A stretch of DNA of 64,000 bases from an uncultured Candidatus Saccharibacteria bacterium (GTDB taxonomy: Bacteria; Patescibacteriota; Minisyncoccia; Phycocordibacterales; UBA6065), in assembly GCA_964495425.1 (NCBI GenBank), contig CAZBVG010000001.1:84054-148053 (forward strand), in the 5' to 3' direction. Numbering within the stretch: position 1 is the stretch's first letter; each line of letters starts with the position of its first letter. Shown piece by piece: positions 304 through 59,395 of this stretch. Below the pieces are notes generated by a model. That model was not told the DNA's origin and did no database searches. It worked only from the letters and a program-made list of their open reading frames with translations. The position numbers and the translations under genes are program-made.

Positions 304-1512
304 TTACGAGATATTTGTTGAGATGTTATAGATCGGAATAAGTACCGAAGCAAGGAGGAAACCGACACCAAGACCGAGAAGCACAATCATTGCAGGCTCA
401 ATAAGATCAACAAGCGTATCAACGGCATTCACCACTTCTCTACTATAGAAAATAGAGAGGGTTTTCAAAATCTTTCCCAATTCACCCGACTCCTCACCCA
501 CCTTAATCATTTGTACCATGATGCCTGGAATCACTTTTTTACCTGAAAGTGCCTCAGATACTGACTTACCTCCCTTCACATCTTCAATTGCCTCATCGAG
601 TACTTTTTTATATACCGCATTACCCACAACATCAGACGTAAGTTCAAGCGATCGAATCATCGGGATACCAGAAATAAGAAGTGTGTTCATGTTGTCAGAA
701 ATTCGAGAAAGGTAAAGTTTCTGATAGAGATGCTTGATAAACGGCGCGGTAATTTTCATATCGTCAAACGCTAGCTTACCTGAATCTGTTTTCGAAAATC
801 TATACGACAAGAAGCCTACAATAATCGTGACGATCAAAAGTATTACACCGTATGAAGTAAAGAATTGAGATATACCGATAACAAACTTTGTATACAACGG
901 AATTTGCTGACCTGATTCGATAAGAATACTGCTGATTTTAGGAATCACAATCGTAAGCATCAATATCATTACCACGACGAACGTAAAAATAACGAACGCT
1001 GGATAAATGAGAGCGTTTTTTGCTTTTGAATTCACTTCATATGCCCTATCGAGATGTTCCGCAAGGAAAAGGAACACCTCATCAAGTTTTCCAGACTCTT
1101 CACCTGAACGAACCATATTTACATAGAAACTTGAGAAGATTTTTGGATGCTTAGCGATCGCTTTTGAGATTGAACTACCTGCTTGAAGTTCATCAGCAAT
1201 TTGCGTGAGAGCTTTTCGCAGTGTTGGGTTCTCTGTTTCGCTTGCTAGGAGTCGAAATACACGGAGCGCAGATACCTGTGCCTCAAACAATGTCGCAAGC
1301 TGTCGTGAAAGTACCACGACATCCTTATTTGATACGCGTGAGAAAAGTGCGAGATCTCGCTTAAAAATAGATTTCTCCTCTGCTGGTGCAATCTCTCGAA
1401 TAATGAGGCCTCGTCTCTGTAAGGATGCTATCGCCACCTCAAGAGATATGGCATCAATTGATCCCTTCGATTCAACCTGACTTTGATCTATTGCACTGTA
1501 ATTAAATAACAT
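304..1512 (-). CDS. pilC: Type IV pilus assembly platform protein PilC (GspF family)
   Basis: 402 aa with two GspF-type repeats and three TM segments. It sits in an operon with pilT and pilB. Confidence 0.85.
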   Translation of the reverse strand: MLFNYSAIDQSQVESKGSIDAISLEVAIASLQRRGLIIREIAPAEEKSIFKRDLALFSRVSNKDVVVLSRQLATLFEAQVSALRVFRLLASETENPTLRKALTQIADELQAGSSISKAIAKHPKIFSSFYVNMVRSGEESGKLDEVFLFLAEHLDRAYEVNSKAKNALIYPAFVIFTFVVVMILMLTIVIPKISSILIESGQQIPLYTKFVIGISQFFTSYGVILLIVTIIVGFLSYRFSKTDSGKLAFDDMKITAPFIKHLYQKLYLSRISDNMNTLLISGIPMIRSLELTSDVVGNAVYKKVLDEAIEDVKGGKSVSEALSGKKVIPGIMVQMIKVGEESGELGKILKTLSIFYSREVVNAVDTLVDLIEPAMIVLLGLGVGFLLASVLIPIYNISTNIS

Positions 1513-1522
1513 GATGATTCAA

Positions 1523-2590
1523 TTAAAGGAGTCTTTCGAGCACCTTCGGATTTGGCGAATAAAGATACGCATTATCAGGGGTAATCTCGCCTCGACGCAC
1601 AAGATCTGCGAGCGATCGATTCATATCAATCATACCCTGCTCAAGACCTGTTTCAATAACCGTATTGAGCTCGTGAACTCGCTTTTCACGAATGAGGTTT
1701 GAAACTGCGGTGTTCGAAATAAGAAGTTCGTATGCTGGAACGAGTCCTCCCGCAACACGAGGAATAAGTCTTTGGGAGAAAATACCCGTGAGTGTTGCTG
1801 CAAGCTGAATTCGAATTTGATCCTGCTGTCCCGCTGGGAAGGAGTCAATAATTCGGTTAATGGTTTGAGCAGCATTATTTGTATGGAGTGTTGAAAGCAC
1901 CAAATGACCTGTTTCCGCTGCAGTCACAGCAGTTGCCATGGTATCAATTCCTCGCATTTCTCCGATCAAAATCACATCGACGTCCTGACGGAACACTGAA
2001 CGCAATGCTGTTGAAAAATCAATGGTATCGAGTCGAACCTCTCGCTGATCGATCACAGATTTTTTCTGTTCATAGAGATATTCAATGGGATCTTCGATTG
2101 TAATAATATGCTCTGCTCTCTTTTCGTTAATTGACTCAATCATTGCAGCGAGAGTCGTTGTTTTACCGTGACCCACAGGACCCACAACAAGGAAGAATCC
2201 CTGCTGCTTTTCAGCAAAACTTTCGAGAATCGGTGGCAAATTAAGTTCCTCAAATGAACGGATCTTCTTTGGAATGAGTCGGAATGCGAAAGAAACACAA
2301 CCTCGCTGGAAATAACCATTACCTCGGAAACGAGATTTATCTTTGTAGTTGTATGAAAAGTCTATTTCCTTATTACGCAAAAAGAGATCACGATCATCAG
2401 CATTGAGGACGACTGTCATAAATCCCGCGGTATCATCCTTGGTCAAAAGCTTTCGATTCATGAGAGGCACGAGAAATCCGGATACACGTATTGTTGGATA
2501 ACGGCCTTCACACAAGTGTAGGTCAGAAGCCGACTCCTTCATCATCGTTTCTATGAGATCCTCAAATTCTTTTTTGTAATCAAGTGCCAT
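1523..2590 (-). CDS. pilT: Twitching-motility ATPase PilT
   Basis: 355 aa. Walker A GPVGHGKTTT, GspE-family Asp and His boxes, and PilT-sized. Confidence 0.85.
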   Translation of the reverse strand: MALDYKKEFEDLIETMMKESASDLHLCEGRYPTIRVSGFLVPLMNRKLLTKDDTAGFMTVVLNADDRDLFLRNKEIDFSYNYKDKSRFRGNGYFQRGCVSFAFRLIPKKIRSFEELNLPPILESFAEKQQGFFLVVGPVGHGKTTTLAAMIESINEKRAEHIITIEDPIEYLYEQKKSVIDQREVRLDTIDFSTALRSVFRQDVDVILIGEMRGIDTMATAVTAAETGHLVLSTLHTNNAAQTINRIIDSFPAGQQDQIRIQLAATLTGIFSQRLIPRVAGGLVPAYELLISNTAVSNLIREKRVHELNTVIETGLEQGMIDMNRSLADLVRRGEITPDNAYLYSPNPKVLERLL

Positions 2591-2611
2591 GGTTTTTAAA
2601 ATTATGATGTA

Positions 2612-3025
2612 CTATTTTTTCTTTCCCCCTCCCTTTTTCGAAGAATATATTTTCTCAACTTGGTTTAATACTTCTGACGGAATCGTCTCCGCTTTGATAA
2701 TGTACCCGTCTACCTTCAATTCTTTTGCTTTTTCTATATCTGCCGACTGACTTTGGTTCGTGAGCATAATAACCACCGCATCAGAAGCAAGATTTTCATC
2801 ACGGATCGTCTTTAGAAGTTCTAGGCCGTCCATGTGTGGCATGACAATATCGAGAAGAAGAACGTCAGGCTTTGCTCCGTTATGGAGCTTATCGAGAGCC
2901 GCAGGTGAACCCACCGCAGTGTCGACATCATAACCATTATTGGCAAATTTCAAGGAATACATCCCAAGAAGGAACTTATCATCATCGACAATGAGCACTT
3001 TTACGTTTTTCTTTTCCTTTTCCAT
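2612..3025 (-). CDS. Single-domain response regulator (CheY/PilH-like receiver)
   Basis: 137 aa. VLIVDDD...DIVMPHMDGLELL receiver motifs; no output domain. Confidence 0.75.
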   Translation of the reverse strand: MEKEKKNVKVLIVDDDKFLLGMYSLKFANNGYDVDTAVGSPAALDKLHNGAKPDVLLLDIVMPHMDGLELLKTIRDENLASDAVVIMLTNQSQSADIEKAKELKVDGYIIKAETIPSEVLNQVEKIYSSKKGGGKKK

Positions 3026-3061
3026 GACACAATACGACTTCTTTAGTATATCACGCCTCTT

Positions 3062-4768
3062 TTAGAGCTTATTCACCTCACTCCATGGTATTTCACCATT
3101 GAAAGCTTTGAGCATTGCGTCTTCCTTCATCGTGAGCATTCCTTTCGCTCGAGCTATTTTATATATCGTTTCTTCAGTCGCATTTGTTAAGATTGCTCGT
3201 TCAAATTCACGATCCATTTCGATAACTTCGGCAACAGCCACTCGCCCGCGCACACCTGTTGGGCACGCAGCTGATGGTTCTGCCTCAACAACACTTTTTG
3301 GAATCTTGATATCTTTTTTAAATTCAGGAGCCAAGTCAGAAAACTGCTTGGTGATCATTGTGTCGATTGAACCCTCAATAGTTATCCTTCTACCTCCCTC
3401 ACATATCTTTGAAACGAGTCGTTGTGCTAACGATAACGCGAGTGTTGGTGCAATAAGGTACGGATCAACACCCATGTCTATGAGACGAGGAATAACACCG
3501 ATAGCGGTGTTGGTATGGATAGTTGAAAGCACCAAGTGACCCGTGAGCGCCGCCTGAATCGCGAGCTGAGCCGTTTCTTTATCTCGAATTTCTCCCACCA
3601 TGATGATGTCTGGGTCCTGACGAAGTGTTGTTCGAAGTCCCGATGCAAATGTGTACCCGATTTCTGGTCGAACCTGCGACTGGCTCACGCCTTCCATGTT
3701 GTATTCAACAGGATCTTCAAGTGAAAGCACGTTCTTGGACTCATCATTAATCTCTTTAAGCATTGAGTAGAGCGTTGTCGACTTACCTGATCCAGTCGGA
3801 CCAGATACAAGAATGAGACCATACGGACGCGCCATCGCACGCCTGAGTGCCGCGAGATTGGCTTTTGAGAAACCAATATCCTCAAGCGTTCGTACACCCC
3901 TTTCCTGATCCAAAATTCGCATCACCACCTTTTCTCCGTAATATGCCGGGAATGTAGAAACACGGAAATCGATCTTTCGACTCTCAATTCGAGCTGAAAA
4001 GCGTCCGTCTTGCGGTTTTCGCTTTTCGTCGAGTTTCATGTTTGAAAGTATCTTGATACGTGCAACTACAGCATCGTGCACTTTGATTGGCAAAATGAGA
4101 GATGTGTGAAGATCGCCATCAACTCGGAAACGTACACGAACTTTGTCTACCATTCGTTCAACATGGATGTCAGACGCATCTCCTTCTACTGCATATCGCA
4201 AAATAGTTGCCACAATTTTGGTAACTGGTGCATCTTCAATAATTGTTGTTTCTCCTTCTTTTGTGACCTGGCTTTCATCGAGCTCACTTTCCACATCATC
4301 AATATCAGTTTCGAGCTCATCGAGCGCCTTTGTTACTTCTCCAGAGAGTCCTCGATAAAGCGAAAGTGCCGCCTTGAAATCCTCCTCGGTAATGAGAAAG
4401 AGTTTAAAAGGCATATTTACCTTTGATGCAATAAAGTTGAGAGCGTCACGAGCCTCAATATCATCAGGATCAACCATTCCTACCTCAAGAGCATTATCTG
4501 CAACCGCAATCGGCACAAATTTATAATGCATCGCAGATTCTTCAGGAATGTATTTGAGTGTTTCGAACGGAATATCTACATCTTTGAGTGATCGCGCTGG
4601 AACACCGAGATACTCGCCTTTTGCTTCTAGAATATCCGAGTCCTTGAGACCTTTTTTAGACAAAACAGCTTCAAGAGATTCCCCGGTTAGACGCACTTCT
4701 TCAGAAACGGCGGCAGCGTCTTTTTTGTCGAGCAGATTTTTCTGTACGAGGATGTCTAATACGCTCAT
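3062..4768 (-). CDS. pilB: Type IV pilus assembly ATPase PilB (GspE family)
   Basis: 568 aa. Walker A GPTGSGKSTT, a C-terminal tetracysteine-like region, and an N-terminal GSPII-like domain. Confidence 0.85.
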   Translation of the reverse strand: MSVLDILVQKNLLDKKDAAAVSEEVRLTGESLEAVLSKKGLKDSDILEAKGEYLGVPARSLKDVDIPFETLKYIPEESAMHYKFVPIAVADNALEVGMVDPDDIEARDALNFIASKVNMPFKLFLITEEDFKAALSLYRGLSGEVTKALDELETDIDDVESELDESQVTKEGETTIIEDAPVTKIVATILRYAVEGDASDIHVERMVDKVRVRFRVDGDLHTSLILPIKVHDAVVARIKILSNMKLDEKRKPQDGRFSARIESRKIDFRVSTFPAYYGEKVVMRILDQERGVRTLEDIGFSKANLAALRRAMARPYGLILVSGPTGSGKSTTLYSMLKEINDESKNVLSLEDPVEYNMEGVSQSQVRPEIGYTFASGLRTTLRQDPDIIMVGEIRDKETAQLAIQAALTGHLVLSTIHTNTAIGVIPRLIDMGVDPYLIAPTLALSLAQRLVSKICEGGRRITIEGSIDTMITKQFSDLAPEFKKDIKIPKSVVEAEPSAACPTGVRGRVAVAEVIEMDREFERAILTNATEETIYKIARAKGMLTMKEDAMLKAFNGEIPWSEVNKL

Positions 4769-4808
4769 ATGGTGGCGCTTTCGCGCGAGTTAAACGTGTA
4801 TACCGACT

Positions 4809-5138
4809 TTACTGAGTCGAAGACTCACTTGTACCGATCGGCGCAAATGGATTAGATCGTCCAGCCGGCTGCGGTGCAAGTGTTCTTCCAAAATCAACGA
4901 GTGTTGTCCAAGCAGCATTTCTAAAAAGAGAATCATTGAGCTTGAGACGCTTCAAAGAATTAAGAGCTGTAATGAAATTACCTTCAATTGTGGCTGCTGA
5001 AGGGTTATTTGTGACACCGGTAAGAAGCGATTCATCAACAAGTGGCTGTCGATTCATGTAAAAGTAAGCACCGAGTACAATAACAACAAATGCTACTGCG
5101 CCTATCACCAAATTTTTTACATTTTCATTATCGATCAT
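4809..5138 (-). CDS. Small membrane-anchored protein within the pilus operon (PilP-like position)
   Basis: 109 aa with a single N-terminal TM helix. It lies between the pilO-like gene and pilB. No recognisable motif. Confidence 0.35.
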   Translation of the reverse strand: MIDNENVKNLVIGAVAFVVIVLGAYFYMNRQPLVDESLLTGVTNNPSAATIEGNFITALNSLKRLKLNDSLFRNAAWTTLVDFGRTLAPQPAGRSNPFAPIGTSESSTQ

Positions 5139-5151
5139 ATGATTTGGATGA

Positions 5152-5685
5152 TTATTTGAGCCAATATGTCTTTATTGTCACGTTGTAATCATACAACGGG
5201 TTTCCATCGACGGAAGTAAAGCTGATTGAAGACACATCGATGAGTCGGAGGCTTCGTTCGAGATCGCGCATAAACGCAAGGAATGTTGTATAAGAAGCAG
5301 ATGTAGAGAACGTCAGTGTAAGAGTTCCGTACACGCTATTATCTCGCCCTATAGTCTCCTTCTTTTCTGCCGCATCTGTCTTGAAATTTCGGATGCGCAT
5401 ATTATACGTCTTTGCCATTTCATCGATATCAATGATCAATCGAATATTATCAATGTTATCTGGCAAAAGCTTAGCAAGACCATCGAGATCCGCATCCGGC
5501 ATTGCATCGAGCTTCTCTAGAAGCTTATCCCTCTCCTGTTGTAGGCTCTTTGAGTTAGTGAGAGCTTCTTCGTAATTTGCCTTCTCGGCATTCAATTGCT
5601 TTATCTCAGAATATGTTGGATCAACATAGCCAAAGAAGAGGCCGATAGATGCGAGTATTACTGCGAGTGAAATGATAGTGCTCAT
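5152..5685 (-). CDS. PilO-like pilus assembly protein
   Basis: 177 aa. N-terminal TM followed by coiled coil. The gene overlaps the pilN-like gene by 4 nt, indicating translational coupling. Confidence 0.55.
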   Translation of the reverse strand: MSTIISLAVILASIGLFFGYVDPTYSEIKQLNAEKANYEEALTNSKSLQQERDKLLEKLDAMPDADLDGLAKLLPDNIDNIRLIIDIDEMAKTYNMRIRNFKTDAAEKKETIGRDNSVYGTLTLTFSTSASYTTFLAFMRDLERSLRLIDVSSISFTSVDGNPLYDYNVTIKTYWLK

Positions 5686-6314
5686 TGTGCTGGTTGTTCT
5701 AATGCTGGCTCAGTTGCTGATGGCGCTTCAGTCCCTGAAACAATTGAAGAATACGACACAAGACTTGGATTCACCGTTGTGGTGACATTAAATGAAATAG
5801 TGCCAGCAGGTTCAAGTGTCATATCGCTTAATACAGTATCCGTAAGGCTTGTTTGTTCGCTCAAAAGATCAGCCTGAAGTGCAACTGACGCGTAGTTTTG
5901 CGCCTGCCCCTTCATTTGTACCTGAATTTTGTCACTCGCGAGATATGTGAAGGTAAAATCCTTAAATCGAACAGATCGAAGTGTTACAGACGAAAGAAAA
6001 TCGAAAAGTGGTGTAACTGCAACGTGATTTTCAAGGAGACTATTACCTGCGGTGAGTCGAGAATCGAGTCGAACGAGATCTTTGATAACTTCAGGCTCAA
6101 AAGCGCCTTTCGCGTCATCAAGCTCCTCTTTACTTGCCTCAATCTGTTTCAAGACGAGCTGTTTGTAGAAAAACATACCTCCGGTTAACACGAGTCCGAC
6201 TATAAAAAATATAGTGGCGATAAGTGAAAAGAGACTTATCGGGGTCGCAACTTTACCTGTTGCGGCGATAACTGGTTTCTTTGGTATGAATGATGTTTGA
6301 AATCGAGGATCCAT
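5682..6314 (-). CDS. PilN-like pilus assembly protein
   Basis: 210 aa with an N-terminal TM helix and a periplasmic domain. It follows pilM in the same orientation. Confidence 0.55.
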   Translation of the reverse strand: MDPRFQTSFIPKKPVIAATGKVATPISLFSLIATIFFIVGLVLTGGMFFYKQLVLKQIEASKEELDDAKGAFEPEVIKDLVRLDSRLTAGNSLLENHVAVTPLFDFLSSVTLRSVRFKDFTFTYLASDKIQVQMKGQAQNYASVALQADLLSEQTSLTDTVLSDMTLEPAGTISFNVTTTVNPSLVSYSSIVSGTEAPSATEPALEQPAQ

Positions 6315-6387
6315 GGTGCTCTAATACCGCTTCATTATACTGTACTTTTAATAATTGCTATCCACAGCATTCAAACAAATCAGAAAA

Positions 6388-7509
6388 TTATTCAGATTCC
6401 TGGAGTTTTCGGAGGGCAATACCGATTGCAACGGCAAACTCAGGACCTGCTGTTTTGAGTACTGGTTCGAGGAATGCTGGTGCCTCTGTCTTTGAAAAAG
6501 GATCTCCGAGTACCACCTCAGTCTGGAATCTCTGACGTGCAATATCAAGAAAACCCTTAAGCAATGACCCTCCTCCAGTCAAAATTACCTTCGAAATGCT
6601 TTTATTGTATTTACGTTCAAAACTCGCAATAACACGATTAGTCTCGGTGAAAATATAATCAAGGTTAAGCGCGATTACGTCGTCTATGTTCTTATTATCT
6701 GGTTCCTTAGAAATTCCTATAGTTCGCTTGATATGCTCCGCATCACCTACGCTCAGTCCAAGTGCTCGCGAAAGGCCAAGAGTTATTTCCTGGGATCCAC
6801 GATTTATAGTATGAGATGCTCGCAAATTCCCCTGTTCTATAACATACAGCTTCGTTGAACCTGCGCCCATATCAAAAATCATGACCGTTTCGAGATTTTG
6901 ATCTATAACAGATCGCATAGAGCTGAAAATCTCAATTTCATAGAACGAAGACTCGAGTCCAGCCGTTTGTGAAATCTGATTAAGATGGCTGAGAACATCG
7001 TTATGGATAACCACAAGCAAAACATCAATAGTTTTTTCCTTCGGAGCCTCTCCAGGAAGTGGAGCTTTTTCAAACTCTGAAAATGCATTCTCCTGGCGTG
7101 GCACGATTGACCAATCAAGAGCCACCTCAGTGATCGGCACAGGGATATATTTACGCGCCTCCATTGGAATCATGGTCGCAAGCTGCCTCTGATCAACATC
7201 AGGCATCTTTATAAACGATAGAAGGCTTGAAGATGAGGCGATTGAGATACCAGACGCCTTGGTGGTGACATTCGCCTCTTTGAGGAGGTCTTTGAGTGCT
7301 TCCGCAATCTTTTCCATCGGAAGATTGGTTGCGCGGCCAATTTCTATTCCGGAATAGGGACCCAAAGCGAGCTCACCATATGTCTCAAGCACAGCTCGAC
7401 CCCCTTTTTTTCGAAGCTGAACTACTTTTATTGAAGACGAGCCTATGTCGATACCGACGACGCTTTGGCCTTTTTTAGCAAACAGATTGTTGAGGAAATT
7501 AAGAGGCAT
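6388..7509 (-). CDS. pilM: Type IV pilus assembly ATPase-like protein PilM (actin/FtsA fold)
   Basis: 373 aa. The N-terminal VVGIDIGSSSIKVV phosphate-1 motif and the actin-like ATPase layout. Confidence 0.8.
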   Translation of the reverse strand: MPLNFLNNLFAKKGQSVVGIDIGSSSIKVVQLRKKGGRAVLETYGELALGPYSGIEIGRATNLPMEKIAEALKDLLKEANVTTKASGISIASSSSLLSFIKMPDVDQRQLATMIPMEARKYIPVPITEVALDWSIVPRQENAFSEFEKAPLPGEAPKEKTIDVLLVVIHNDVLSHLNQISQTAGLESSFYEIEIFSSMRSVIDQNLETVMIFDMGAGSTKLYVIEQGNLRASHTINRGSQEITLGLSRALGLSVGDAEHIKRTIGISKEPDNKNIDDVIALNLDYIFTETNRVIASFERKYNKSISKVILTGGGSLLKGFLDIARQRFQTEVVLGDPFSKTEAPAFLEPVLKTAGPEFAVAIGIALRKLQESE

Positions 7510-12714: not shown

Positions 12715-12718
12715 AGAT

Positions 12719-14479: not shown

Positions 14480-14504
14480 AGACTCTTAAGGATATAGTAC
14501 GAAC

Positions 14505-15311
14505 ATGAATATGAAAAGGTTTAAAACTCTCATATATACGTATTATCGGGCATCTGGTCGACACGACCTACCGTGGAGAAAGACGCGTGATCCATACAAA
14601 ATCCTTGTCTCTGAAAGCATGCTTCAGCAAACACAGGTCCCCCGAGTTTTAAAAAAATATAATAAATTTCTTACAAGCTTTCCAACTGCAAAAGCTTTGG
14701 CACAAGCACCTACCGCGCAGGTACTTACCGCGTGGCAAGGATTAGGGTACAATCGCCGCGCGCTTAATCTAAAACGTGCCTGTGAAATAGTAGTGAACAC
14801 ATATGACGGAATATTTCCCAAAACGGCAGAGGAACTTGAGGCGCTCCCCGGAATCGGCCAATCAACGCGAGGTGCCATTATGGCTTTCGCCTATAACATA
14901 CCAACTGTATTTATAGAAACAAATATCCGCTCAATCTTTATTCATCATTTTTTTGATGGCGTAGAAAAAATTCATGATAAAGAAATTCTGCCGCTTATCG
15001 AAAAAACTCTCGACCGCGCACACCCTCGCGATTGGTATTACGCACTCATGGATTATGGTGTTCACTTAAAGCAAACGCTTCCCAATCCATCACGAAATAG
15101 CATCCATCATGTAAAACAGTCTGCTTTCAAAGGTTCAAATCGCGAAATGCGCTCTAAAATTCTTGCGTATATTCTGAAAGAAAATCGAACCGAAAATGAA
15201 ATCATACAGCACATTGGCATGCCTGATCGTGCGATCAAAAAAAATATTCAAGCACTCACCTCTGAAGGGTTTATCGTGCGTAAAAACGGCACCTATTCTA
15301 TTGCCCACTAA
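14505..15311 (+). CDS. HhH-GPD base-excision DNA glycosylase (MutY/Nth-like, no Fe-S cysteine cluster)
   Basis: 268 aa. Helix-hairpin-helix LPGIGQSTRGAI and an HhH-GPD core. No C-terminal 4-Cys cluster. Confidence 0.6.
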   Translation: MNMKRFKTLIYTYYRASGRHDLPWRKTRDPYKILVSESMLQQTQVPRVLKKYNKFLTSFPTAKALAQAPTAQVLTAWQGLGYNRRALNLKRACEIVVNTYDGIFPKTAEELEALPGIGQSTRGAIMAFAYNIPTVFIETNIRSIFIHHFFDGVEKIHDKEILPLIEKTLDRAHPRDWYYALMDYGVHLKQTLPNPSRNSIHHVKQSAFKGSNREMRSKILAYILKENRTENEIIQHIGMPDRAIKKNIQALTSEGFIVRKNGTYSIAH

Positions 15312-15342
15312 GAAACTTGTACCCTTCTAAGAGCGTACTAAG

Positions 15343-15624
15343 TTGTATATCCCTAAATTCACACATATGAAAAACGCACTTATTATTATAGTTATTATTC
15401 TGGTTGTAGGAGGTATTGTTTATGCATTTACTCGACCGACGACTCCGGACATACATGACGACAATCAGGTAGTTTGTACCATGGACGCAAAAATGTGCCC
15501 CGATGGTTCATATGTTGGACGAACTGGTCCTAATTGTGAATTCGCAGCATGCCCTACCGGCGGAACTACGACCAACGGCACCTCAACACTCAACGGTACA
15601 ACGAGTATACAAATGAATCTCTAA
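15343..15624 (+). CDS. Small Cys-containing secreted or membrane protein
   Basis: 93 aa with an N-terminal hydrophobic helix (likely start at MKNALIII), four Cys and a Thr/Gly/Asn-rich tail. Confidence 0.4.
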   Translation: MYIPKFTHMKNALIIIVIILVVGGIVYAFTRPTTPDIHDDNQVVCTMDAKMCPDGSYVGRTGPNCEFAACPTGGTTTNGTSTLNGTTSIQMNL

Positions 15625-15690
15625 TTGATCGACTCAGAAGGTAGGAAATAAAAAATGCCCAGAAGTACTTCTGGGCATTCGCGTATGCGA

Positions 15691-16671
15691 CTAAAGCTTT
15701 TTTGACTCTTGCACTCTCACCACGTGACGGTGAGAAATCGCTTTGTCCCTCGTCGTCGCAAACTGAACCACGAGCCGGATTGTGCCTCCCTTGGTTACGA
15801 ATCGAGCGCGGTAATTGTTTACCACATTCTCTTTCTTCGCATCCAAGATCATGGCCCCTTCCGGAAACTCGCAGAGGGTTGATACTTCCTCATTGGGAAG
15901 TTTACCCTTCTTGCGGAGATGATGTTCAAGGATGAAGAGCGCATGCTCCAAACACCCTTGTGTTGCGGTCTGCCGCTTCCGAACATTTTCTCCCGGCACT
16001 GCGACAAGCGACTTGTCGGGCTCCGAACTGTCCGCAGTCCAGAACCCATAACTCGTCTCGACAGGTGCATCGATTTGCGACAACACCCCTTCGACACTTG
16101 TCTTTGGGAGACTTTTGACGACGTCCTCGACCACCACCCCTTGCTCACGAAGAGCAGAGAGAACAGTGAGCGGTGACATGCCATTGCCAGGACCAAGCAC
16201 ATCGTCACCTAACACGATGACGAAGTAGTTGAGTCCTTTTTTGTGGGCCTGCATCGCCTGTTCGATGATATTCGTTCGAAACACCTGGTAATCGGCGTTT
16301 TTCACAAGCTTCTCACCGAAACAGACTCGATACATCCGCTCCTGACGTTTGAGACTTTTCTCAACGTATGAGCGGATCCTCGGATCTGGCAACAGACGGG
16401 GTTCCTCAGGCGTCACTGGCGACGCATCAGAAAGACCTCCTGCCAGACCTCCGACCTTGAGATCACGGATCCCGAACACTGACGCGACCTGATCGAGCTG
16501 ATTGTGTTCAACCATCGCCCGAAATGAGTCGATAAAGGCAAGAAGTCTCGCCTTGCTTCCAGCATCCTCTTTGGCTGGCATTCTGGGTGCTACGCTTTCC
16601 ATAATTTCTATGTGCTGTGGGTTGGGGTTACGTTTCAAATTCCTATTCGTAACTATACATATTTTTTTCAT
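15691..16671 (-). CDS. Hypothetical protein (GC-rich ORFan)
   Basis: A 326-aa ORF in a roughly 1-kb stretch with about 55-60% GC, against about 37-45% in neighbouring genes. No motif recognised. The start may be the internal MESVAP. Confidence 0.5.
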   Translation of the reverse strand: MKKICIVTNRNLKRNPNPQHIEIMESVAPRMPAKEDAGSKARLLAFIDSFRAMVEHNQLDQVASVFGIRDLKVGGLAGGLSDASPVTPEEPRLLPDPRIRSYVEKSLKRQERMYRVCFGEKLVKNADYQVFRTNIIEQAMQAHKKGLNYFVIVLGDDVLGPGNGMSPLTVLSALREQGVVVEDVVKSLPKTSVEGVLSQIDAPVETSYGFWTADSSEPDKSLVAVPGENVRKRQTATQGCLEHALFILEHHLRKKGKLPNEEVSTLCEFPEGAMILDAKKENVVNNYRARFVTKGGTIRLVVQFATTRDKAISHRHVVRVQESKKL

Positions 16672-24221: not shown

Positions 24222-25529
24222 TTAACCCTGCGCGCCCGGCAAATTCGGTGGAGGTGGCGGTGATATATGGGCATGATGCGAATCCTCCATTTCTATTACT
24301 TTAAACGTCCGCACCGCTCTATTAAGTATTCTGTGTCCAAAGAGATAATGCAAGACAAATTCAATGATCACAAAAAGGAGCAGAAGTGAGAGCGCGATAA
24401 CGATGATGTTATCCAAAAGCCATTTTGTAAGTGTTGGATTGAGATCTATATCAACCGATTCATCACGTGCATTCCCTGCCGCATCGAAAACGCGAACAAT
24501 GGCACGAATGTTGCCCGATGATTGAGTTGGTAATTGATACGGACTCTGGGTCTCCACAAAAAGTGGTGAGACATCCTCGGTGTCGCTTTTATCGAGCACC
24601 GCTACTTCGTAATGATCCACACCCGAAAGTGCATCAGTAGTGAAGAACGAAAGCATTGCTTTGTTTTCTTTGAATTGTTCAGAATACAATTCTACTTTAG
24701 GAGTAAACTCTGCCGGCGGCACCGTATCTACACGAATGAGAAAATGTGTTGTTCCACCCCACACTCCCTTTTTAGATGCTCGAATATGAAAATACGTAAG
24801 TCCTTCTTTGACATGCGGCAATGAGATAGTTGTGTCCTGAGTATCCTCTACCGTGTCCGGAACAGTAAACGGCTTGTCATCTACTTCGTAACTAAAGCTT
24901 GAAACATCAGCCGGTTTTTCCCAAGAAATTACAGGCGTATCATTTTTATAATACGTGTCTTGAAATGGATGGGTCTCTGAAAAAACCTTCACGCCTTCTG
25001 GAGCCTTCGCCACAACAGAATACACCGCCGTATCAAAATTTATCTGCACAGGTGTTCCATATCCATCATTTGCAAGAACTTCAGTTGTTTCTGCAACTGA
25101 GACGCGCGCGTCACCCAAAGCAACAGCTTTGAATGTAATTGTTGTGATAAGTCCACTCTCCGTATTTATACCTCCAGGAATAACGCCGGTTAACTTGAGC
25201 GTTCCTTCTGTATTTGAATAATTTGGTGGCTCAACCCAAATACCGATAATAGATTTACTTCCTGATGGCTGAAGGATCGCTAATTTTTTAGGATCATACT
25301 TAAGTCGAATATCGAGTGTATTTACACTTCTTCCGTGCGTATTGATATAAACCGGAATTTCAAACGTTGAACCTTCCTGAAATGACCCCGAACGAGATGA
25401 AAAGAAAATCGTCGCCTTCTGAACCAAAGAGTTGGCATTCACCCGCACGTTTTGCTGACCATGTACAACATGGGCTCCAGAAAAAGCCAAAAAAAGACCC
25501 AAAAAAGTTATAAGTAAGGCACGATGCAT
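24222..25529 (-). CDS. Surface protein with cohesin-like and Ig-like domains and a C-terminal TM anchor
   Basis: 435 aa. A signal peptide ending ...VHGQQ, a beta-sandwich cohesin-like segment, a C-terminal TM helix and a PPPPP tail. Confidence 0.45.
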   Translation of the reverse strand: MHRALLITFLGLFLAFSGAHVVHGQQNVRVNANSLVQKATIFFSSRSGSFQEGSTFEIPVYINTHGRSVNTLDIRLKYDPKKLAILQPSGSKSIIGIWVEPPNYSNTEGTLKLTGVIPGGINTESGLITTITFKAVALGDARVSVAETTEVLANDGYGTPVQINFDTAVYSVVAKAPEGVKVFSETHPFQDTYYKNDTPVISWEKPADVSSFSYEVDDKPFTVPDTVEDTQDTTISLPHVKEGLTYFHIRASKKGVWGGTTHFLIRVDTVPPAEFTPKVELYSEQFKENKAMLSFFTTDALSGVDHYEVAVLDKSDTEDVSPLFVETQSPYQLPTQSSGNIRAIVRVFDAAGNARDESVDIDLNPTLTKWLLDNIIVIALSLLLLFVIIEFVLHYLFGHRILNRAVRTFKVIEMEDSHHAHISPPPPPNLPGAQG

Positions 25530-25577: not shown

Positions 25578-26174
25578 ATGATTCAACCATACGCAGCTCG
25601 TACACATGAAAAAATGAAGGAGGTCCTTATGGACCCAAACGGTATTGGCCCAGATATCCACTACTATATGGTCAGAGGTGGTACCGCAAAGACCAACGTA
25701 ACCGTGTGGGAGGCCGGCACTGTTTCAGGTGAATATATAAAGACCTATGGCCACTACCATGTGGGTAGACTCGATGAAACCTACACCGTTTTACAAGGTG
25801 AAGGCATTATCATCATGCAGGTACGTAAGACTGATAGCTCTGGAAAGCCGCTTGATGGTGAAATCGAATCATTCAAAGCTATCAAAGTAAAAGCTGGCGA
25901 CTCAGTATTCATTCCAAGCGGCGCAGGACACCTCGCTATAAATACTGGAAAGACCTGGTTTGTAACTTCCGATGATAGTCCAGTCAATTTTGAGGAGAAA
26001 GATGCGGTGAGTCTGCCTGGTCACGCTGACTATGAACCATTCCGAAAACTCCACGGCGCCGCTTATTACGTTGTAGAGAAAAACGGATCTATTGAATTCG
26101 TAAAGAATCCAAACTACACATCAGTACCTAAAGTAGAGTTCAAAAAACCGAGCCTACTTTCCTTTTGGCGTTAG
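25578..26174 (+). CDS. Cupin-type glucose-6-phosphate isomerase (archaeal-type cPGI family)
   Basis: 198 aa. The signature TYGHYH...ETY (T-x-G-H-x-H...E-x-Y) and IPSGAGHLAIN (PPxxxHxxxN-like) match the cupin PGI metal-binding motifs. Confidence 0.6.
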   Translation: MIQPYAARTHEKMKEVLMDPNGIGPDIHYYMVRGGTAKTNVTVWEAGTVSGEYIKTYGHYHVGRLDETYTVLQGEGIIIMQVRKTDSSGKPLDGEIESFKAIKVKAGDSVFIPSGAGHLAINTGKTWFVTSDDSPVNFEEKDAVSLPGHADYEPFRKLHGAAYYVVEKNGSIEFVKNPNYTSVPKVEFKKPSLLSFWR

Positions 26175-29100
26175 CATCACGCGTATTTCATGAACTTTTC
26201 CATCCTTTGAGAGAGGAATTTTCTTGTCTGGCATAACTACACCGTTTTCAGAAATCTCTGAAACTTCACACAAAACACCGGCAGGTTTTTCGTAGGTAAT
26301 TTTATAGATAGTACCTCCGCGATTATATGTAAGCGTAGCGGTCTTCCAATCTGTTGGGAACGACGGTGTGATTATCAGTGCATCATCTTCAACTCGAACA
26401 CCAAACAAATACTCAAGTATCGTTCGATACATTACGCCCGCAGAACCGGTGTACCATGTCCATCCTCCTCTACCTTTATATGATGGCTCGGCATACACAT
26501 CAGATGCCACAACATATGGTTCAACACGATATTCTTTAGCCTTTTCCGCTGAGTCAGTTCGCTTGAATGGATTGATGAGATCAAGCACCTTCATCGCATT
26601 ATCTGAATTACCAGTTTTAAAGAATGCCTGAACAGCCCATAGTGCAGCATGGTTGTATTGCGAACCGTTTTCTCGAACTCCTGGCGGATAATCCTTCACG
26701 TATCCTGGATCAAATGGCGCGTTGCGTAGCGCAGGCGTAAGCAACTTCATGTTTGAACCGTCAAAAAGTTCTGCAAACGTAGAGTCCATCGCCTTTTCAA
26801 CTCGTTCCTTTGGCGCAAGGCCTGAAAGGACCGCCCACGACTGTGCAATTGAGTCGATCTTGAATTCATTTTGCTTTCGAGAACCGAGCACTGTGCCCGA
26901 ATCAAGAAACACTCGTCTATACCAACGGCCATCCCATGCGTGTTTTTCAATAGCCTTCGCAAGCGCTTGCGAATATGACGCGTAGTACTCCGCCTTATCA
27001 ATATCACCTCGCTTTCGAGCGACAGCAGAGAATCGCTGCGTGAGCGAACCAAGGAACCATCCCACCCACACGCTTTCTCCTCTACCCAGTACACCCGCAC
27101 GGCTCAAACCATCATTCCAATCGCTTTGTCCGATAAGTGGCAATTCATGTTCACCGAGCACCGAGCTCTTTGCGAGCGCTCGCACACAATGCTCATACAA
27201 TGTTCCCTTTTCTTCAGACACTTTTGGTGTTCCCGCCCATTCTCTTTGATAAGCAAAATTAAGTGTTGGACCCTCAAGGAAAGGAATCTCTACTCCGAGA
27301 ATAGACTCGTCGCCCGTGATCGCAATATATTCAAGTGTTACATACACAAGCCACAACTGATGATCAGAAAGTACTGAACGTGCACCGAAACTATTATGAT
27401 CATGCCACCAATTGAGCGCATCACCTTCCTTAAACTGATGTGCCGCAGCCTTCAAAATAAACTCACGAACATCCTGCGGCTTTGACCAAATAAAGGCCGA
27501 CATGTCCTGCAACTGATCACGTAAACCAAATGCGCCCGAAGGTTGATAAAAACCTGTCTTGCCCCAGATACGTGATGAAAGTGCCTGATACAATAATTGT
27601 GAATTAAAGAGAGCGTTGAGACTCTTGTCCGGAGAATCGATAGTGACCTGTGAAGTAGCTTGCTTCCAGAAATCCGAAACAAATTTCTTGGTGTCTTTGA
27701 GATTAAATGTCTTTCTTAGCGACTCAACGAGCATCTCTGCCTCAACTTTACTTTGAGCTTCACCGAGGAAAAATACAATCTGCTTTTCTTCTCCTGGCTC
27801 CACAGTAAACTTGGTCTGAAGAACAGCACAGTTTGTCGTTCCTGACATAATTTCATTCGACAAACCTTCTCGCTTGAGAGCTGCAGGATGCTCGAATGAT
27901 CCATGACGACCAAGGAACTCCGCCTTGTCAGTTGTTATCGTGAAATCACCTGAAGAGACATCGGCGAATGCGGTTGAGTTCGGGAGCTGATTTCTAAACG
28001 ATTGCTTGAACATAAGCGCGCCCGTCTTTTCATTTCGCTCGTAGGTAATGAAATCACGCGCATGATCGCGGAACATGTTCATTGCCGGCTCAAGATAAAT
28101 AGTTTCTGAAAGCGTACGAGCTTTTGCTCCGTTGTTTTTCATCCGAAGCGTGAGAACTTTTACAGATTCCTTAAGCGGCACCGTGATTTCTAGCGAACAA
28201 GAAAGCGGTCCGCGCGCATGCTCGAATATCGTATAGCCCTTTCCGTGGCGAACGGTGTAAGGATATTTCGTGCGAATAGGCATCGGTGTCGGATTCCATA
28301 CCTCCCCCGTTGCTTCGTCACGCACATATACAATTTCAGAACTCTTGAATACGAGCGGATCGTTATTCCATGATGTGATTCGATTATCGTAACTATCTTT
28401 ACTCCACGTAAACATTGAACCGGATTCCGTTACAACGGTTCCGAAATGAGGAGAGGTAATGATGTTAGACCATGGCGCAAACGGAAGATTGTGTGAGCTC
28501 ACATTCATTACATACTCTGACTTTTCTACATCATAACCGCCCCATGCATTCTTGAATTCAAGATTTCCTGGGAGTGGATTACTCTTAGCGATATGATGAA
28601 CGGCTCGCGCTGTTGGCACATGTTTTGCAGGATATTGAGGAGCCTTTGCAAGTTTTGAAAACGCTTTGATCTGTTGCTTGAAGGTTCCGTCCTTACTATC
28701 TAATGTCACACGTGCGACATGGAGCAATACTTTTTTATCAATTTCTTCTGTAAGATCTGATTTCACGTGGTGCACGGTGCTGCCTGCAACATCACTCTTC
28801 ACACCCTTACTTTGTCGCAAAAGGAAATCAATTTCATCATCGAGCACTTTAATGTAGCTTGCCGGCTCTTGGTTTAGAATGACGAGATCAATTTCAAGAC
28901 CTTTATGCTTCCAATACGCATGGCACAAAAGCGCATGCTTGATAGTCTGGATGTCTTCAATATCCTTAATTTTAACCACAACGACAGGATAATCACCTGA
29001 AATTCCGAGCTTCCATAGTGAATGAATATATGGAAGGGGTGACTGCGGCAATTCTGTTGTTTCGAATCTTCTTCCTCCGAGAGCCCGAGATGCTAAATCC

Positions 29101-50977: not shown

Positions 50978-51406
50978 TTACTCTTTTTGAGTGCTTTTCT
51001 TACTTGGAGCAGGATAGGTTGGCTCGTGGCGGGCAACGAACTCTTCACCCTCACGGAATGGCATGAGCCAGCAAAAACCCGAAAGATACCGGTCATGAAT
51101 GAGAATACACTCAGGATCATCATCTCCCATGCACTCAATGGAATTTTCATTTCCATAGCGTGCCTGCAAATAATGCAAAAGCGTTTTCATACTTAGATTC
51201 TGATCCAGAACGACCGTCCACCCTACTGTGACACCCACAGGTTCATTATTTCGGAAGTAATATCCAAAAAACCGAGGCGGTATAAATGTGCCAGAACATC
51301 GAAGCAGCTTGAGCTGCTCATTTACATATCCCACAAAACCACACCGGTATGGAAAATCGAACCGTAGAGGAAAACATTCAAAGGGAATGATATGTGTGTT
51401 TTTCAT
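50978..51406 (-). CDS. Hypothetical protein inserted between rplE and rpsZ
   Basis: A 142-aa ORF in the same orientation as the operon. GC-rich, around 57%. Cys-, Phe- and Tyr-rich with no motif. Terminators flank it on both sides. Confidence 0.45.
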   Translation of the reverse strand: MKNTHIIPFECFPLRFDFPYRCGFVGYVNEQLKLLRCSGTFIPPRFFGYYFRNNEPVGVTVGWTVVLDQNLSMKTLLHYLQARYGNENSIECMGDDDPECILIHDRYLSGFCWLMPFREGEEFVARHEPTYPAPSKKSTQKE

Positions 51407-54497: not shown

Positions 54498-54845
54498 TTA
54501 TTTATCCTTCTTTTCAGCAGCAGCGCCCTTTGCAGCCTGAGCAGCAGCAATTTCACCTTCCTTCTTCTTCTGTTCGAGTTCCTTCTGCATCTTACCGCCG
54601 TGCTTGGTGAACTTGCGGGTCAAAGAAAATTCGCCGAGTCTGTGTCCCACCATATCCTCTGACACAAGTACCTCGACGAAGTCTTTACCGTTATGAACGC
54701 CAAACTTAAAGCCGACCATTTCAGGTGAAATGTGGCATGCTCGGAGCCAGGTCTTAATAACCCCAGTTGTCTGAGGTTTCTTTCCTTCGATCTTCTTGAG
54801 AAGTCGTGGATCTACGTTTGGTCCTTTTGAAAGGGATCGGGTCAT
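54498..54845 (-). CDS. rpsS: 30S ribosomal protein S19 with an Ala/Lys-rich C-terminal tail
   Basis: 115 aa. Confidence 0.85.
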
Positions 54846-55038
54846 GGAATTTTAGTTTCTGGCAATGAATTACAGCTCGGGCGTCTGGGCTATAGTTGCT
54901 AGAACAACTGTAGTGAAGCAAAAATCTAGGTTTTACCCTAGATTCCTGGTCTAGTGCCCATTCCGAAGCTAGTGTGAGTATCCTAACAGAACGAGTTTTA
55001 AAGTCAAATATATTCCGAAAAATCCTTACAATTCTTTG

Positions 55039-55911
55039 CTAATCGCATGAATATCGCGAAGCATCTAAATAGTGAACCGCAGCTGCTGCATGCACAGTTC
55101 CTAGACCGGGCCCAGTCTCATAAATGTTATCGCATAATCCCCCATCTCTTTGCATGAGACCATCATTTGCCTCGAGTTTTGTATACAAAATATATGACTG
55201 AGAACCGATAAGTGGATCGTTAGGCGCCTCGTACACATACATATGGAATGTACCTGGCGTGCTGCCAGTATTTAATGGATCAAGAGGAACTGATGGCAGA
55301 AAACCCTCATTAACTAAATTTCCGGTGCCATCAACTGGACAGTACGGAGACATTGATGGATCAGTATTCATCTTTAAGAAATATTGCGGTACGACTGACC
55401 AAGCAAAATTATTTAGATTAGGGGTATTACCGTTATATGACCACAATGCGTAGCACGGATAATGCCCGTGCGCATCATAGAAAAATTCCATAGCGGTTTT
55501 AATGGTATTCAAATCTCGTAAACGCGCAGAATCACGAGATTTCTGTCGAGCTGAATTAAACGACGTCATCACTATCGTTGCCAAAATGCCAATAATCGCG
55601 ATGACAACCAAGAGCTCAAGGATAGTAAATCCCCTTTTGAATGTTTTACTATGAAACTTATCGAGTTTTCGCGTGACCGCCAATAGGAGTACAACGATTA
55701 TATAAGTCCCTACCACCTCAAGAGGAATGACATAACGTGAATCAAAAACAAAAGGCAAAACGACCGCGAGAATGAACACATACACCGTCCATGCCATGAC
55801 ATATACCTCCCCAAACCGCGCGTGCGCGTGGTGCTGCTTAAAGCGCAAAGATTCCTTTTCTACACAATAAATGATGAGTACAGAACAATATATGGTGGCA
55901 ATAATGCTCAT
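55039..55911 (-). CDS. Type IV pilin / pseudopilin-like protein inserted between rplB and rpsS (5' end uncertain)
   Basis: It contains KRG|FTILELLVVIAIIGILATIV, the prepilin peptidase cleavage and N-methylation motif, followed by a roughly 200-aa globular domain with C-terminal Cys pairs. The open frame continues upstream through three or four TM helices and into rplB. The start was placed at the first in-frame ATG downstream of rplB. A TTG start at 55683 would give a short leader. Confidence 0.55.
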   Translation of the reverse strand: MSIIATIYCSVLIIYCVEKESLRFKQHHAHARFGEVYVMAWTVYVFILAVVLPFVFDSRYVIPLEVVGTYIIVVLLLAVTRKLDKFHSKTFKRGFTILELLVVIAIIGILATIVMTSFNSARQKSRDSARLRDLNTIKTAMEFFYDAHGHYPCYALWSYNGNTPNLNNFAWSVVPQYFLKMNTDPSMSPYCPVDGTGNLVNEGFLPSVPLDPLNTGSTPGTFHMYVYEAPNDPLIGSQSYILYTKLEANDGLMQRDGGLCDNIYETGPGLGTVHAAAAVHYLDASRYSCD

Positions 55912-56125
55912 TACCCCCGTCTGAACGAGGAGTCCTTTTGTGTACACATCGTATGCAACAAGCACGAAAAAAACGGCGGCCCAAAAATTGGCGAAAAGTC
56001 GCCAAAAACGAATAGTACAGATCTTCTCAAAAAATTTTGAACGATGCCTCACACATGAATTGTAACATGTGCTTGGTATGTATAGACAAACAAAAACGGC
56101 CCTTGTTGGGCCGCTTTTGCGAGTA

Positions 56126-56980
56126 TTACTGAACGTTGTTTCGATCCTTTCCAACCTTTCGGCGAGAAACGATGAATACGTTTGAGTACTTCTTTGGAGT
56201 TCGAGTCTTCTGTCCCTTACCTGCTGGCTTACCCCATCGAGTCTTAAGTCTTCGGAGACCTCGTCCCTGTCGTCCTTCTCCACCACCGTATGGATGGTCT
56301 ACTGGGTTCTGAGCAGTACCTCGAACGGTTGGTCGAATACCAAGCCATCGTGATCGTCCTGCTTTACCAGAGTTAACGAGCCAATGCTCATCGTTAGAAA
56401 CGGTACCTACAGTTGCGTAGCACTCTTCATGAACTCGTCGCACTTCAGAAGAAGGCATCTTGATCATAGTGTAGCTCTGGTCGTTACCGATAACCTGAGC
56501 GAAGATTCCAGCTGCTCGAGCTGCTTTTGCGCCAGAATTTGGCTTGAGCTCAATATTGTACACAAAGGTACCTACAGGGATCTTCTTGAGTGGAAGTGCG
56601 TTACCTGGCAAAAGTGGTGCCTGTGCGCCCGCCACGATCGTTGTACCTGGTTTTACGCCCTTTGGAAGGAGAACATATCGTCGTTCACCATCTCGATATG
56701 CTACAAGTCCAATGAAACCTGATCGGTTTGGATCGTATTCAACTGATTTAACAGTTGCTGGAATATCTCGCTTGTCATACGCGAATGACACATCTCGGTA
56801 GAGTCGCTTGTGTCCACCTCCCTTGTGTCGAACCGTAACTCGTCCGAATGAGTTTCGTCCTACATCTCGCTTTCGTCCGAATGTAAGTGACTTTTCAGGA
56901 TCCTTCTTCGTGATGTACTGCTTGAAGTCGATGGTCTGCATCTGACGACGTCCTGGGCTTGTTGGTCTATATGTTTTCAT
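56126..56980 (-). CDS. rplB: 50S ribosomal protein L2
   Basis: 284 aa. Confidence 0.9.
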   Translation of the reverse strand: MKTYRPTSPGRRQMQTIDFKQYITKKDPEKSLTFGRKRDVGRNSFGRVTVRHKGGGHKRLYRDVSFAYDKRDIPATVKSVEYDPNRSGFIGLVAYRDGERRYVLLPKGVKPGTTIVAGAQAPLLPGNALPLKKIPVGTFVYNIELKPNSGAKAARAAGIFAQVIGNDQSYTMIKMPSSEVRRVHEECYATVGTVSNDEHWLVNSGKAGRSRWLGIRPTVRGTAQNPVDHPYGGGEGRQGRGLRRLKTRWGKPAGKGQKTRTPKKYSNVFIVSRRKVGKDRNNVQ

Positions 56981-59023: not shown

Positions 59024-59395
59024 TTACACGAATATTGAATCCGGATTTCGATCCAGAACGAAGGAAAAGAGATCGACGATAGCCGGGGCTTTATCATTGA
59101 GCGGAATGAACTTAATCTCGTAATATTCAATCGGATCCTCTTCCTTGAGGTCATGATTGATCCTAAAAGCCAGCTCTACGACTGGTACCCGCTGAATAAA
59201 TTTAGCCCTGATTCGCTCAATCGCCTCCTTGTCATCCCGTGCTGTAAGCACAATAGGATGTGGACGCTTCGAAATCGTGATGATATTTCGCACCTTCTCC
59301 CCATTATCACCATTCTCATGAGCTGGAGGATGAAGCACCTGATGCTCTGCCTCTATCGTAAGATATGGTTCCCACACTATTGCTACATAGGTCAT
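59024..59395 (-). CDS. Hypothetical protein inserted between rpsJ and rplC
   Basis: A 123-aa ORF in operon orientation with no motif and flanking terminators. Confidence 0.45.
   Translation of the reverse strand: MTYVAIVWEPYLTIEAEHQVLHPPAHENGDNGEKVRNIITISKRPHPIVLTARDDKEAIERIRAKFIQRVPVVELAFRINHDLKEEDPIEYYEIKFIPLNDKAPAIVDLFSFVLDRNPDSIFV

Follow-up and report, generated by a model that had tools for sequence, protein, structure and literature searches.

A probable in-frame fusion of a type IV pilin to a four-helix membrane protein between rplB and rpsS of an uncultured Candidatus Saccharibacteria bacterium

The class III signal peptides of type IV pilins consist of a hydrophilic or neutral leader with Gly or Ala at position -1, followed by 20-25 hydrophobic residues often including Glu at +5, and prepilin peptidase cleaves them at the cytoplasmic face after the Gly or Ala, the length of the leader being variable (PMC10191384). 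The type IVb and Streptococcus sanguinis major pilins have long leaders and are processed, leader length hence not being fixed (PMC10191384), and the modular pilin PilB of S. sanguinis holds an extra module within the pilin itself (PMC8179133). We describe here a gene located between the ribosomal protein genes rplB and rpsS, on the reverse strand of a 64,000-nucleotide stretch of DNA (hereafter the window; contig CAZBVG010000001.1 of assembly GCA_964495425.1) from an uncultured Candidatus Saccharibacteria bacterium. This gene (55039-56052) is very probably a genuine fusion, joining in frame two genes found apart elsewhere, one for a protein with four transmembrane (TM) helices (the 4-TM protein) and one for a type IV pilin. 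The stretch between rplB and rpsS (54846-56125, 1280 bp) will be called the slot; loci compared with the window are labelled L004-L100, and protein entries P0001 etc. The slot and its borders comprise the following features, lengths being given in amino acids (aa).

56126..56980, reverse strand: rplB (uL2), 284 aa, bordering the slot upstream; an open reading frame (ORF), the identical gene of L004 matching Pfam Ribosomal_L2_N and Ribosomal_L2_C.
55039..56052, reverse strand: fusion ORF, 337 aa and TAG stop, 4-TM protein joined to type IV pilin; the same 337-aa product is present in the ENA gene call.
55630..56052, reverse strand: 4-TM moiety, codons 1-141, with a basic tail ending in KRG; end-to-end alignment with stand-alone orthologues, family search and AlphaFold2 (AF2).
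55579..55638, reverse strand: core of the class III signal peptide, KRG followed by FTILELLVVIAIIGILA, with Gly-1 as codon 141, Phe+1 as codon 142 and Glu+5 as codon 146; PF07963, TIGR02532 and pilin alignment A3.
55042..55629, reverse strand: predicted mature pilin, 196 aa, codons 142-337, with a GspG-like head domain; homologues, A3 profile, AF2 and Foldseek.
54498..54845, reverse strand: rpsS (uS19), 115 aa, bordering the slot downstream; an ORF, with Pfam Ribosomal_S19 on the identical gene.

The long leaders of the type IVb and S. sanguinis pilins measure tens of residues and are hydrophilic or neutral, whereas the far longer segment before the cleavage site of the fusion spans 141 aa with four TM helices and shares its ancestry with a protein family that exists independently. 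The extra module of S. sanguinis PilB is reportedly grafted C-terminally and displayed on the filament; the fusion likewise combines a pilin module and a second module in one polypeptide, but its extra module is N-terminal and membrane-embedded, and processing would remove it. With the pilins of Patescibacteria or Candidate Phyla Radiation (CPR) bacteria, such as those of the Saccharibacteria type IV pilus (PMC11623550), and with GspG-like proteins, the fusion has in common the Gly-1/Phe+1/Glu+5 core, the AR-K-RD-R and YP...P-DP...Y-Y positions, and pilus machinery and pilD in the genome. It differs from them in having a 141-residue four-helix protein, and not a short hydrophilic leader, before the cleavage site, in lying away from the pilin/pilD cluster and in scoring below the GspG cut-off. 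The stand-alone 4-TM family, finally, agrees with the fusion in length, helices, invariant residues, slot and distance of the extended -10 element, while the fused copy is not independent, is more diverged and starts with GTG instead of ATG.

The frame carrying the prepilin motif KRG/FTILELL (the slash marks the predicted cleavage site) is free of stops from 56286 to the TAG at 55039-55041, i.e., 415 codons from stop to stop, and remains open for 218 codons upstream of the motif, across four hydrophobic helices. The first-pass annotation of this DNA had estimated about 200 open codons running into the 3' end of rplB; the length holds, but the part overlapping rplB (56126-56286) is not evidence of coding, because the same alternative frame is open in most of the relatives examined. 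From the rplB stop to the cleavage site 165 codons follow one another without a stop, while the other two frames of the strand contain 6 and 7 stops. The probability of such an open stretch is 9e-5 from composition, and 1 of 20000 shuffles stayed open, so that the fusion frame is not attributable to chance. An assembly or sequencing artefact, in which a missed stop or a frameshift makes a false fusion, might be suspected given the metagenomic source and the lack of an isolate. However, a Logan contig of 2775 bp (SRR6747782) and 8855 bp of the ENA assembly ERZ27309394 match the window at 100% identity, gene calls on at least four contigs give the 337-aa product, and the amino-acid join is seamless, both families aligning up to it, which makes an artefact scarcely credible. 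No stop or frameshift, on which the first-pass annotation had made the matter hinge, separates the TM region from the pilin in these separate assemblies.

Stand-alone 4-TM orthologues of 137-142 aa occupy the position between rplB and rpsS in L010, L011, L013, L018, L071 and L086-L092, and in L085, L088 and L089 rpsS at least is found just downstream of the 4-TM gene. The broad family alignment (A1) held no conserved stretch suitable for fetching 4-TM loci, and the narrower alignment A2, with five orthologues, was used; in it the fusion aligns from residue 1, the GTG at 56052, to the same end as the orthologues. These terminate in ...TRESKNMYKRKGRKG, ...SYRRKRG or ...RRKSNKKG (with ...KRKGRKG, ...KRG and ...KKG directly before the stop), where the window reads ...TRKLDKFHSKTFKRG and then runs on as FTILELL. 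Because the orthologues stop at the point where the window continues with KRG/FTILELL, the two genes are judged to be joined in frame at the predicted prepilin cleavage site, and the basic C-terminal tail of the 4-TM protein appears to stand in for the pilin's own leader peptide. On the same alignments, codons 1-141 are best described as the local copy of a 4-TM family that is a conserved resident of the slot in the Paceibacteria clade, the separate small gene representing the putative ancestral state and the fusion the derived state of one locus. The first-pass annotation had left a choice between a pilin fused to an unusual polytopic N-terminal domain and a separate small membrane-protein gene, and each option captures a part: in this genome the pilin is fused in frame to a domain that, far from being an unknown extension, comes from a conserved family of stand-alone proteins, while in the same slot of relatives the 4-TM gene is separate and has its own stop. 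The comparison of synteny that it had proposed located the 4-TM gene in the same slot of some relatives, but the content of the slot is variable and the fusion is absent from them.

AF2 places the helices of the 4-TM part at residues 14-37, 47-73, 80-103 and 111-140 with a mean pLDDT of 90.4, four in number where "three or four" TM helices had first been proposed, and no fold similar to this model was found in the PDB. HMMER, run exhaustively with residues 1-135 on 1.84 billion representative proteins, delimited a family of 64 representative clusters, 63 of which measure 71-193 aa, the remaining one being the window's own shortened gene call; members are typically stand-alone proteins of about 125-145 aa, and fusion to a pilin was seen in none of the other 63 clusters. 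Alignment A1 displays four hydrophobic segments, the invariant residues K66, E67, R70 and G81, and the consensus ...IYxAxLxIYxGxKEFxRW...HxGE...WT..., and the family hidden Markov model recognizes the window ORF with an E-value of 2.8e-35. The fused copy has the four TM helices and retains 4/4 of the invariant and 8/11 of the near-invariant family residues; it departs from the family in not being an independent protein with its own stop. Pfam and NCBIfam returned scattered sub-threshold matches of the 4-TM part to unrelated membrane families, and no model in them covers the family. A prepilin peptidase fragment as upstream domain was considered and ruled out, as no Peptidase_A24 signal was present and the true pilD lies elsewhere.

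In other lineages the 4-TM gene is located beside rpsB, just upstream of rpmE-prfA (L093 3471-3857; L098 1459-1926; L099 1212-1679), adjoining rpmE in L098 and L099, with prmC after it, while a 163-aa ORF intervenes in L093. This neighbourhood constitutes a second, independent link of the family to translation genes. The family member in L095 sits among giant surface-protein genes.

The presence of a pilin motif between rplB and rpsS, as first annotated, was borne out by two models of the class III signal peptide (IPR012902), Pfam N_methyl (PF07963; score 29 bits, cut-off 21.2, E 7e-7) and NCBIfam TIGR02532 (score 32.6 bits, cut-off 16.3). The core KRG/FTILELLVVIAIIGILA covers codons 139-158, numbered from the GTG at 56052, and KRG/FTILELLVVIAIIGILATIVMTSF has the make-up of a class III signal, with Gly at -1, a hydrophobic stretch after it and Glu at +5. 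Against the GspG equivalog TIGR01710 the pilin half scored 44.4 bits, below the cut-off of 88.85, and the profiles point to a GspG-related pilin that is not a GspG equivalog. Homologues retrieved from 5.8 billion proteins are ordinary Patescibacteria pilins of 185-230 aa with at most 38-40% identity, and the upstream 4-TM domain is absent from all those returned. Among the matches listed, 119/120 pilin relatives carry the motif, either near the called N-terminus or with a Met of their own close by, and the 4-TM domain occurs in none of these 119. In alignment A3 (65 pilin sequences) the fusion pilin keeps all invariant and near-invariant columns checked by eye, and the A3 profile matches solved pilins and GspG, including GspG head domains alone (5wda, 1.7e-17; 3gn9, EpsG head, 2e-7). 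Type IV pilins have a lollipop fold, in which a long N-terminal helix packs against a head made of a beta-sheet. The AF2 model of the pilin consists of one long helix (21-72) and three short strands, with a mean pLDDT of 73.7 and a head partly below 50. The structural comparison of the mature domain, also advised by the first-pass annotation, agreed in kind, since the 21 best Foldseek matches in the PDB are all pilins or pseudopilins, but the matches are weak (best E-value 0.011). Codons 142-337 appear from these comparisons to be an ordinary Patescibacteria type IV pilin, the seventh and orphan pilin of the genome, 38% identical to its nearest paralogue. Neither ribosomal genes nor a 4-TM gene were found near its closest homologues P0002 and P0003.

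Long apparent leaders in the database mostly come with a Met of their own at the motif and look like over-extended calls or run-ons (P0055, P0114, P0115), P0115 being a receiver domain that runs in frame into a prepilin. P0027 joins two pilins in tandem and has a class III motif in the interior of the chain, and in P0080, P0081, P0083 and P0091 the real motif is preceded by degenerate 'GFTPLE' pseudo-leader units that are repeated.

The orthologues favour the GTG at 56052 as start codon, 73 nt past the rplB stop, giving 337 aa. The candidates in frame are GTG1, GTG30, GTG36, ATG48, TTG69, ATG86, GTG90, GTG92, TTG99, GTG113 and TTG124. Instead of a short hydrophilic leader, every ATG or GTG start leaves at least one TM helix before the motif, GTG1 resulting in a 141-aa "leader" with four helices, and only TTG124 gives a classical leader of 18 aa. 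The other genes checked start with ATG in 37/37 cases and have a Shine-Dalgarno-like (SD) motif in 3/37. ATG86, chosen by one gene caller (P0001, 252 aa), was rejected: the GGAGG lying 8 nt upstream of it carries no weight because SD motifs are hardly used in this genome and the GGAGG encodes the family-invariant Gly-Glu. That gene callers disagree on this gene (252 vs. 337 aa), and can be misled by an SD-like sequence in an SD-poor genome, is a warning for annotation.

It could alternatively be supposed that one frame yields two products, the pilin being translated from TTG124 with the 18-aa leader MAVTRKLDKFHSKTFKRG and the long chain being a minor or irrelevant by-product. Such a leader fits the range of the genome's pilins (5-20 aa) and of the relatives, the absent SD motif is no argument where so few genes use one, and the long-leader entries P0055, P0114 and P0115 have the pilin's own Met near the motif. 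This supposition is nevertheless rather unlikely, since no ATG occurs between codon 86 and the motif, TTG is the start of 0/37 other genes checked, no promoter-like element was seen just upstream of codon 124, and ribosomes on the 4-TM part meet no stop and must run into the pilin anyway. Uncertainty about the start site does not alter the picture much. As a separate observation, TATAAT-like hexamers are found a few nt before the ATG of several genes of the window and L100 (pilM, pil4), suggesting frequent leaderless or near-leaderless mRNAs.

Pilus genes are encoded near the left edge of the window.

304..7509, reverse strand: pilM, pilN, pilO, a 109-aa ORF, pilB, a response regulator, pilT and pilC; Pfam; the cluster continues past the left edge of the window.

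L100 overlaps positions 1-11512 of the window at 100% identity and extends beyond its left edge, and at 11461-15989 it contains three pilins, a 269-aa pilD at 12869-13678 (A24_N_bact and Peptidase_A24), a further three pilins and a pilin-like protein of 173 aa. The six pilins around pilD have leaders of 5-20 residues; the first of the cluster (152 aa, leader MNKTKG) begins at about position 52 of the window, on the reverse strand, and runs off the left edge. Since pilD, pilB, pilC, pilM, pilN, pilO and pilT, the prerequisites for processing and polymerisation, are all encoded, the organism is predicted to have a complete type IV pilus system.

Lys and Arg together number 4 in the N-terminus of the 4-TM part, 1 in loop 1, 4 in loop 2, 1 in loop 3 and 6 in the tail, from which we infer that the bundle runs N-in/C-in and that the KRG tail is cytoplasmic. 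With KRG at the cytoplasmic face, the pilin helix would insert in its normal orientation and the head domain would lie outside; a cut by PilD after Gly141 would then provide the pilus machinery with a normal mature pilin, with N-terminal Phe and Glu5. The 4-TM remainder would be about as long as the stand-alone orthologues and both ancestral proteins would be restored, hence the fusion may be tolerated since the chain would resolve itself post-translationally. The gene would be transcribed alone, between the rplB terminator and the rpsS promoter, from its extended -10 element and as a leaderless mRNA. That PilD resolves the chain into two proteins is, on the motif and the predicted topology, an evenly balanced proposition. 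The explanation as a whole, i.e., a real fusion, resolved by PilD and forming its own transcription unit, is the best at hand and one that we favour slightly.

Several points weigh against it. No precedent for a prepilin with a membrane-spanning leader or an internal cleavage site was found in the literature, the accepted definition of the leader peptide being that of a hydrophilic one (PMC10191384). The fusion is limited to one species-level lineage, with no sequence variants, and its GTG start stands amid all-ATG genes, so that full-length expression may be low or the true start may be ATG48 or ATG86. The 4-TM part has lost W71 (replaced by F), S130 and K131, which could mean relaxed constraint, and this half has diverged much faster than the orthologues. 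It is 33-38% identical to them, though their RplB is 84-92% identical to that of the window, while the slot orthologues are 52-86% identical among themselves at equal or greater RplB distance. The seven sequences nearest to it by raw distance are slot orthologues, and its pairing with P0180 in a neighbour-joining tree was for this reason taken as long-branch attraction; it may conceivably be an imported diverged copy. We read selection on the 4-TM half as altered or relaxed, not absent.

A decay accident is an alternative: a small deletion would have removed the 4-TM stop and the adjacent pilin start, leaving one or both halves non-functional, with the pilin tethered and unassembled or the 4-TM half drifting. 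The low identity of that half contrasts with 58-79% among orthologues whose RplB proteins are 81-92% identical to each other, and the three lost near-invariant positions, the GTG start in an otherwise all-ATG genome and the lack of the fusion in the closest relatives (the slot of L005 being empty) are all in line with decay, as are the six other pilins beside pilD, which would make an orphan pilin dispensable. However, the 165 codons remained stop-free despite the heavy divergence (P ~9e-5), the four invariant 4-TM residues and all checked pilin family positions are kept, and neither the four helices nor the positive-inside pattern is disturbed. Decay is therefore regarded as unlikely, and a fusion with both halves maintained is preferred.

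The transcription of the fusion gene was considered from the signals predicted in the slot.

56090..56120, reverse strand: terminator-like hairpin and T-run right after the rplB stop; 13 pairs, 7 of them G-C, -16.2 kcal/mol.
56059..56067, reverse strand: extended -10 element TGTTACAAT, with 6 nt between its end and the GTG start; read by eye from the sequence.
54980..55007, reverse strand: promoter-like site of rpsS, TTGACT-16-TG-n-TAGGAT; consensus scan, conserved in alignment A4.
54846..54975, reverse strand: conserved 5' leader of rpsS, with the hairpin CUAGG-loop-CCUAG and then a U-run; A4 and RNAalifold.

The junction was surveyed in 80 species representatives (L005-L084), relatives by RplB and all Patescibacteria (Paceibacteria / 'Taylorbacteria'), with a best RplB identity to the window of 90%, against 92% for one metagenome contig. 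The gap between rplB and rpsS is at most 320 bp in 24 of these species, holds an insert of 0.4-3 kb in 25, lacks rpsS within 3.5 kb in 21 and is cut by a contig end in 10; the slot is accordingly empty in 24/70 evaluable species and occupied or broken in 46/70. Its content varies even among close relatives, from deformylase-like, sigma-factor-like and peptidoglycan-binding-like genes (all by eye) to pilins, and L005 has an empty slot. The slot of L013 also includes, by eye, a small antitoxin/RelE-type toxin pair (6321-6855), and the N-terminus of the slot pilin of L008 (4390-4966) looks frameshifted, NKNKRAFT and IELLVVISIIALL being read in different frames.

A hairpin with a T-run follows rplB in nearly all close relatives, and in 34/61 related loci with a long or unknown gap vs. 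4/24 with a short one, thus accompanying the disrupted state of the junction. The pattern TGnTAnnAT ending 6-7 nt before the start was recognized by eye in the window and in 7/9 orthologues (L010, L011, L013, L018, L086, L087 and L089); L010 conforms on condition that translation starts at its second ATG, and L071 and L088 are exceptions. The consensus scan missed this element in the fusion gene, where no good -35 is present, and its geometry suggests a leaderless transcript. In alignment A4, 165 nt upstream of rpsS are conserved whatever the slot holds, with TTGAC-N16-17-TGnTAGGAT and then the leader, and a promoter-like site lies within 185 nt upstream of rpsS in 50/57 sequences (56 related loci and the window), including loci with gaps of 64-130 bp. 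Taken together with the survey, these predicted signals portray the rplB-rpsS junction, highly conserved otherwise, as an insertion hot spot in the Paceibacteria clade, split into two predicted transcription units.

The first-pass annotation had envisaged the pilin as obligatorily co-transcribed with core ribosomal proteins, i.e., as an integral member of the S10 operon whose supply would track growth rate. A shared strand, a tight spacing of 73 nt between the rplB stop and the GTG, a stretch from the pilin stop to the rpsS promoter that has no terminator, and pilins in the slot of four other species (L006, L008, L040 and L071) are what such an arrangement would lead one to expect. The terminator-like hairpin after rplB, the gene's own extended -10, the clade-wide promoter-like site of rpsS even where the gap is 64-130 bp, the unrelated slot genes across species, the many empty slots and the location of the pilD cluster elsewhere all speak against it. 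As far as predicted signals tell, the fusion gene shows neither the freedom from internal terminators and promoters nor the conserved synteny of an S10 operon member, and it probably constitutes a transcription unit of its own. Read-through from rplB is possible, but the proposed coupling to growth rate finds no support and obligatory membership of the operon is very improbable.

The promoter-like site and an rpsS leader of about 115-135 nt are kept in the subclade with RplB identity of at least 78% (L005-L021, L085-L087). RNAalifold on 16 leader sequences gave 15 pairs, four of them with changes on both sides, and two enclosing helices; the invariant CUAGG-loop-CCUAG hairpin followed by U5-6 is attenuator-like. 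The leader is a candidate ribosomal protein leader, and as such a candidate regulatory element, for which no credible family was found in Rfam. The Rfam hit to ncr1015, a Bacillus sRNA, at 54914-55031 on the reverse strand (27.5 bits against a gathering threshold of 60, E 0.049) had no match in nine relatives and an unrelated context, and was dismissed as chance.

Elsewhere among the ribosomal protein genes, a 123-aa ORF between rpsJ and rplC (59024-59395, reverse strand) is among the few genes here with AGGAG upstream; Pfam and NCBIfam gave no match for it, and the identical contig L004 is the only other place where it was found. A 142-aa ORF between rplE and a zinc-ribbon-type rpsN (50978-51406, reverse strand), with no Pfam match, may be a third lineage-specific insert or may be spurious. 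A 2922-aa ORF with several hydrophobic segments (26154-34922, reverse strand) adjoins a 435-aa cohesin-domain protein (24222-25529, reverse strand), and the two may be epibiont cell-surface proteins.

The fusion could also be taken as a 'Rosetta stone', signifying that the 4-TM protein works with type IV pilins and that the pair is made as a polyprotein resolved by prepilin peptidase at an internal site; in that case the 4-TM protein could be a prepilin membrane chaperone, a docking partner or a link between pilin insertion and translation. We consider such a functional partnership doubtful, but if it were true it would imply a wider substrate range for PilD-type enzymes and provide a first functional handle on the 4-TM family found near ribosomal protein genes. 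If PilD cuts the chain, the locus would show in nature a prepilin peptidase acting on a site that lies behind a polytopic membrane domain, with a bearing on how the enzyme recognizes its substrates and on the fusion of genes to the cytoplasmic side of a pilin. Independently of the pilin, the outcomes are a split and insertion-prone rplB-rpsS junction, a 4-TM family near translation genes and a candidate leader of rpsS. The pilin with a polytopic, family-derived 'leader' is itself a real oddity of a single lineage.

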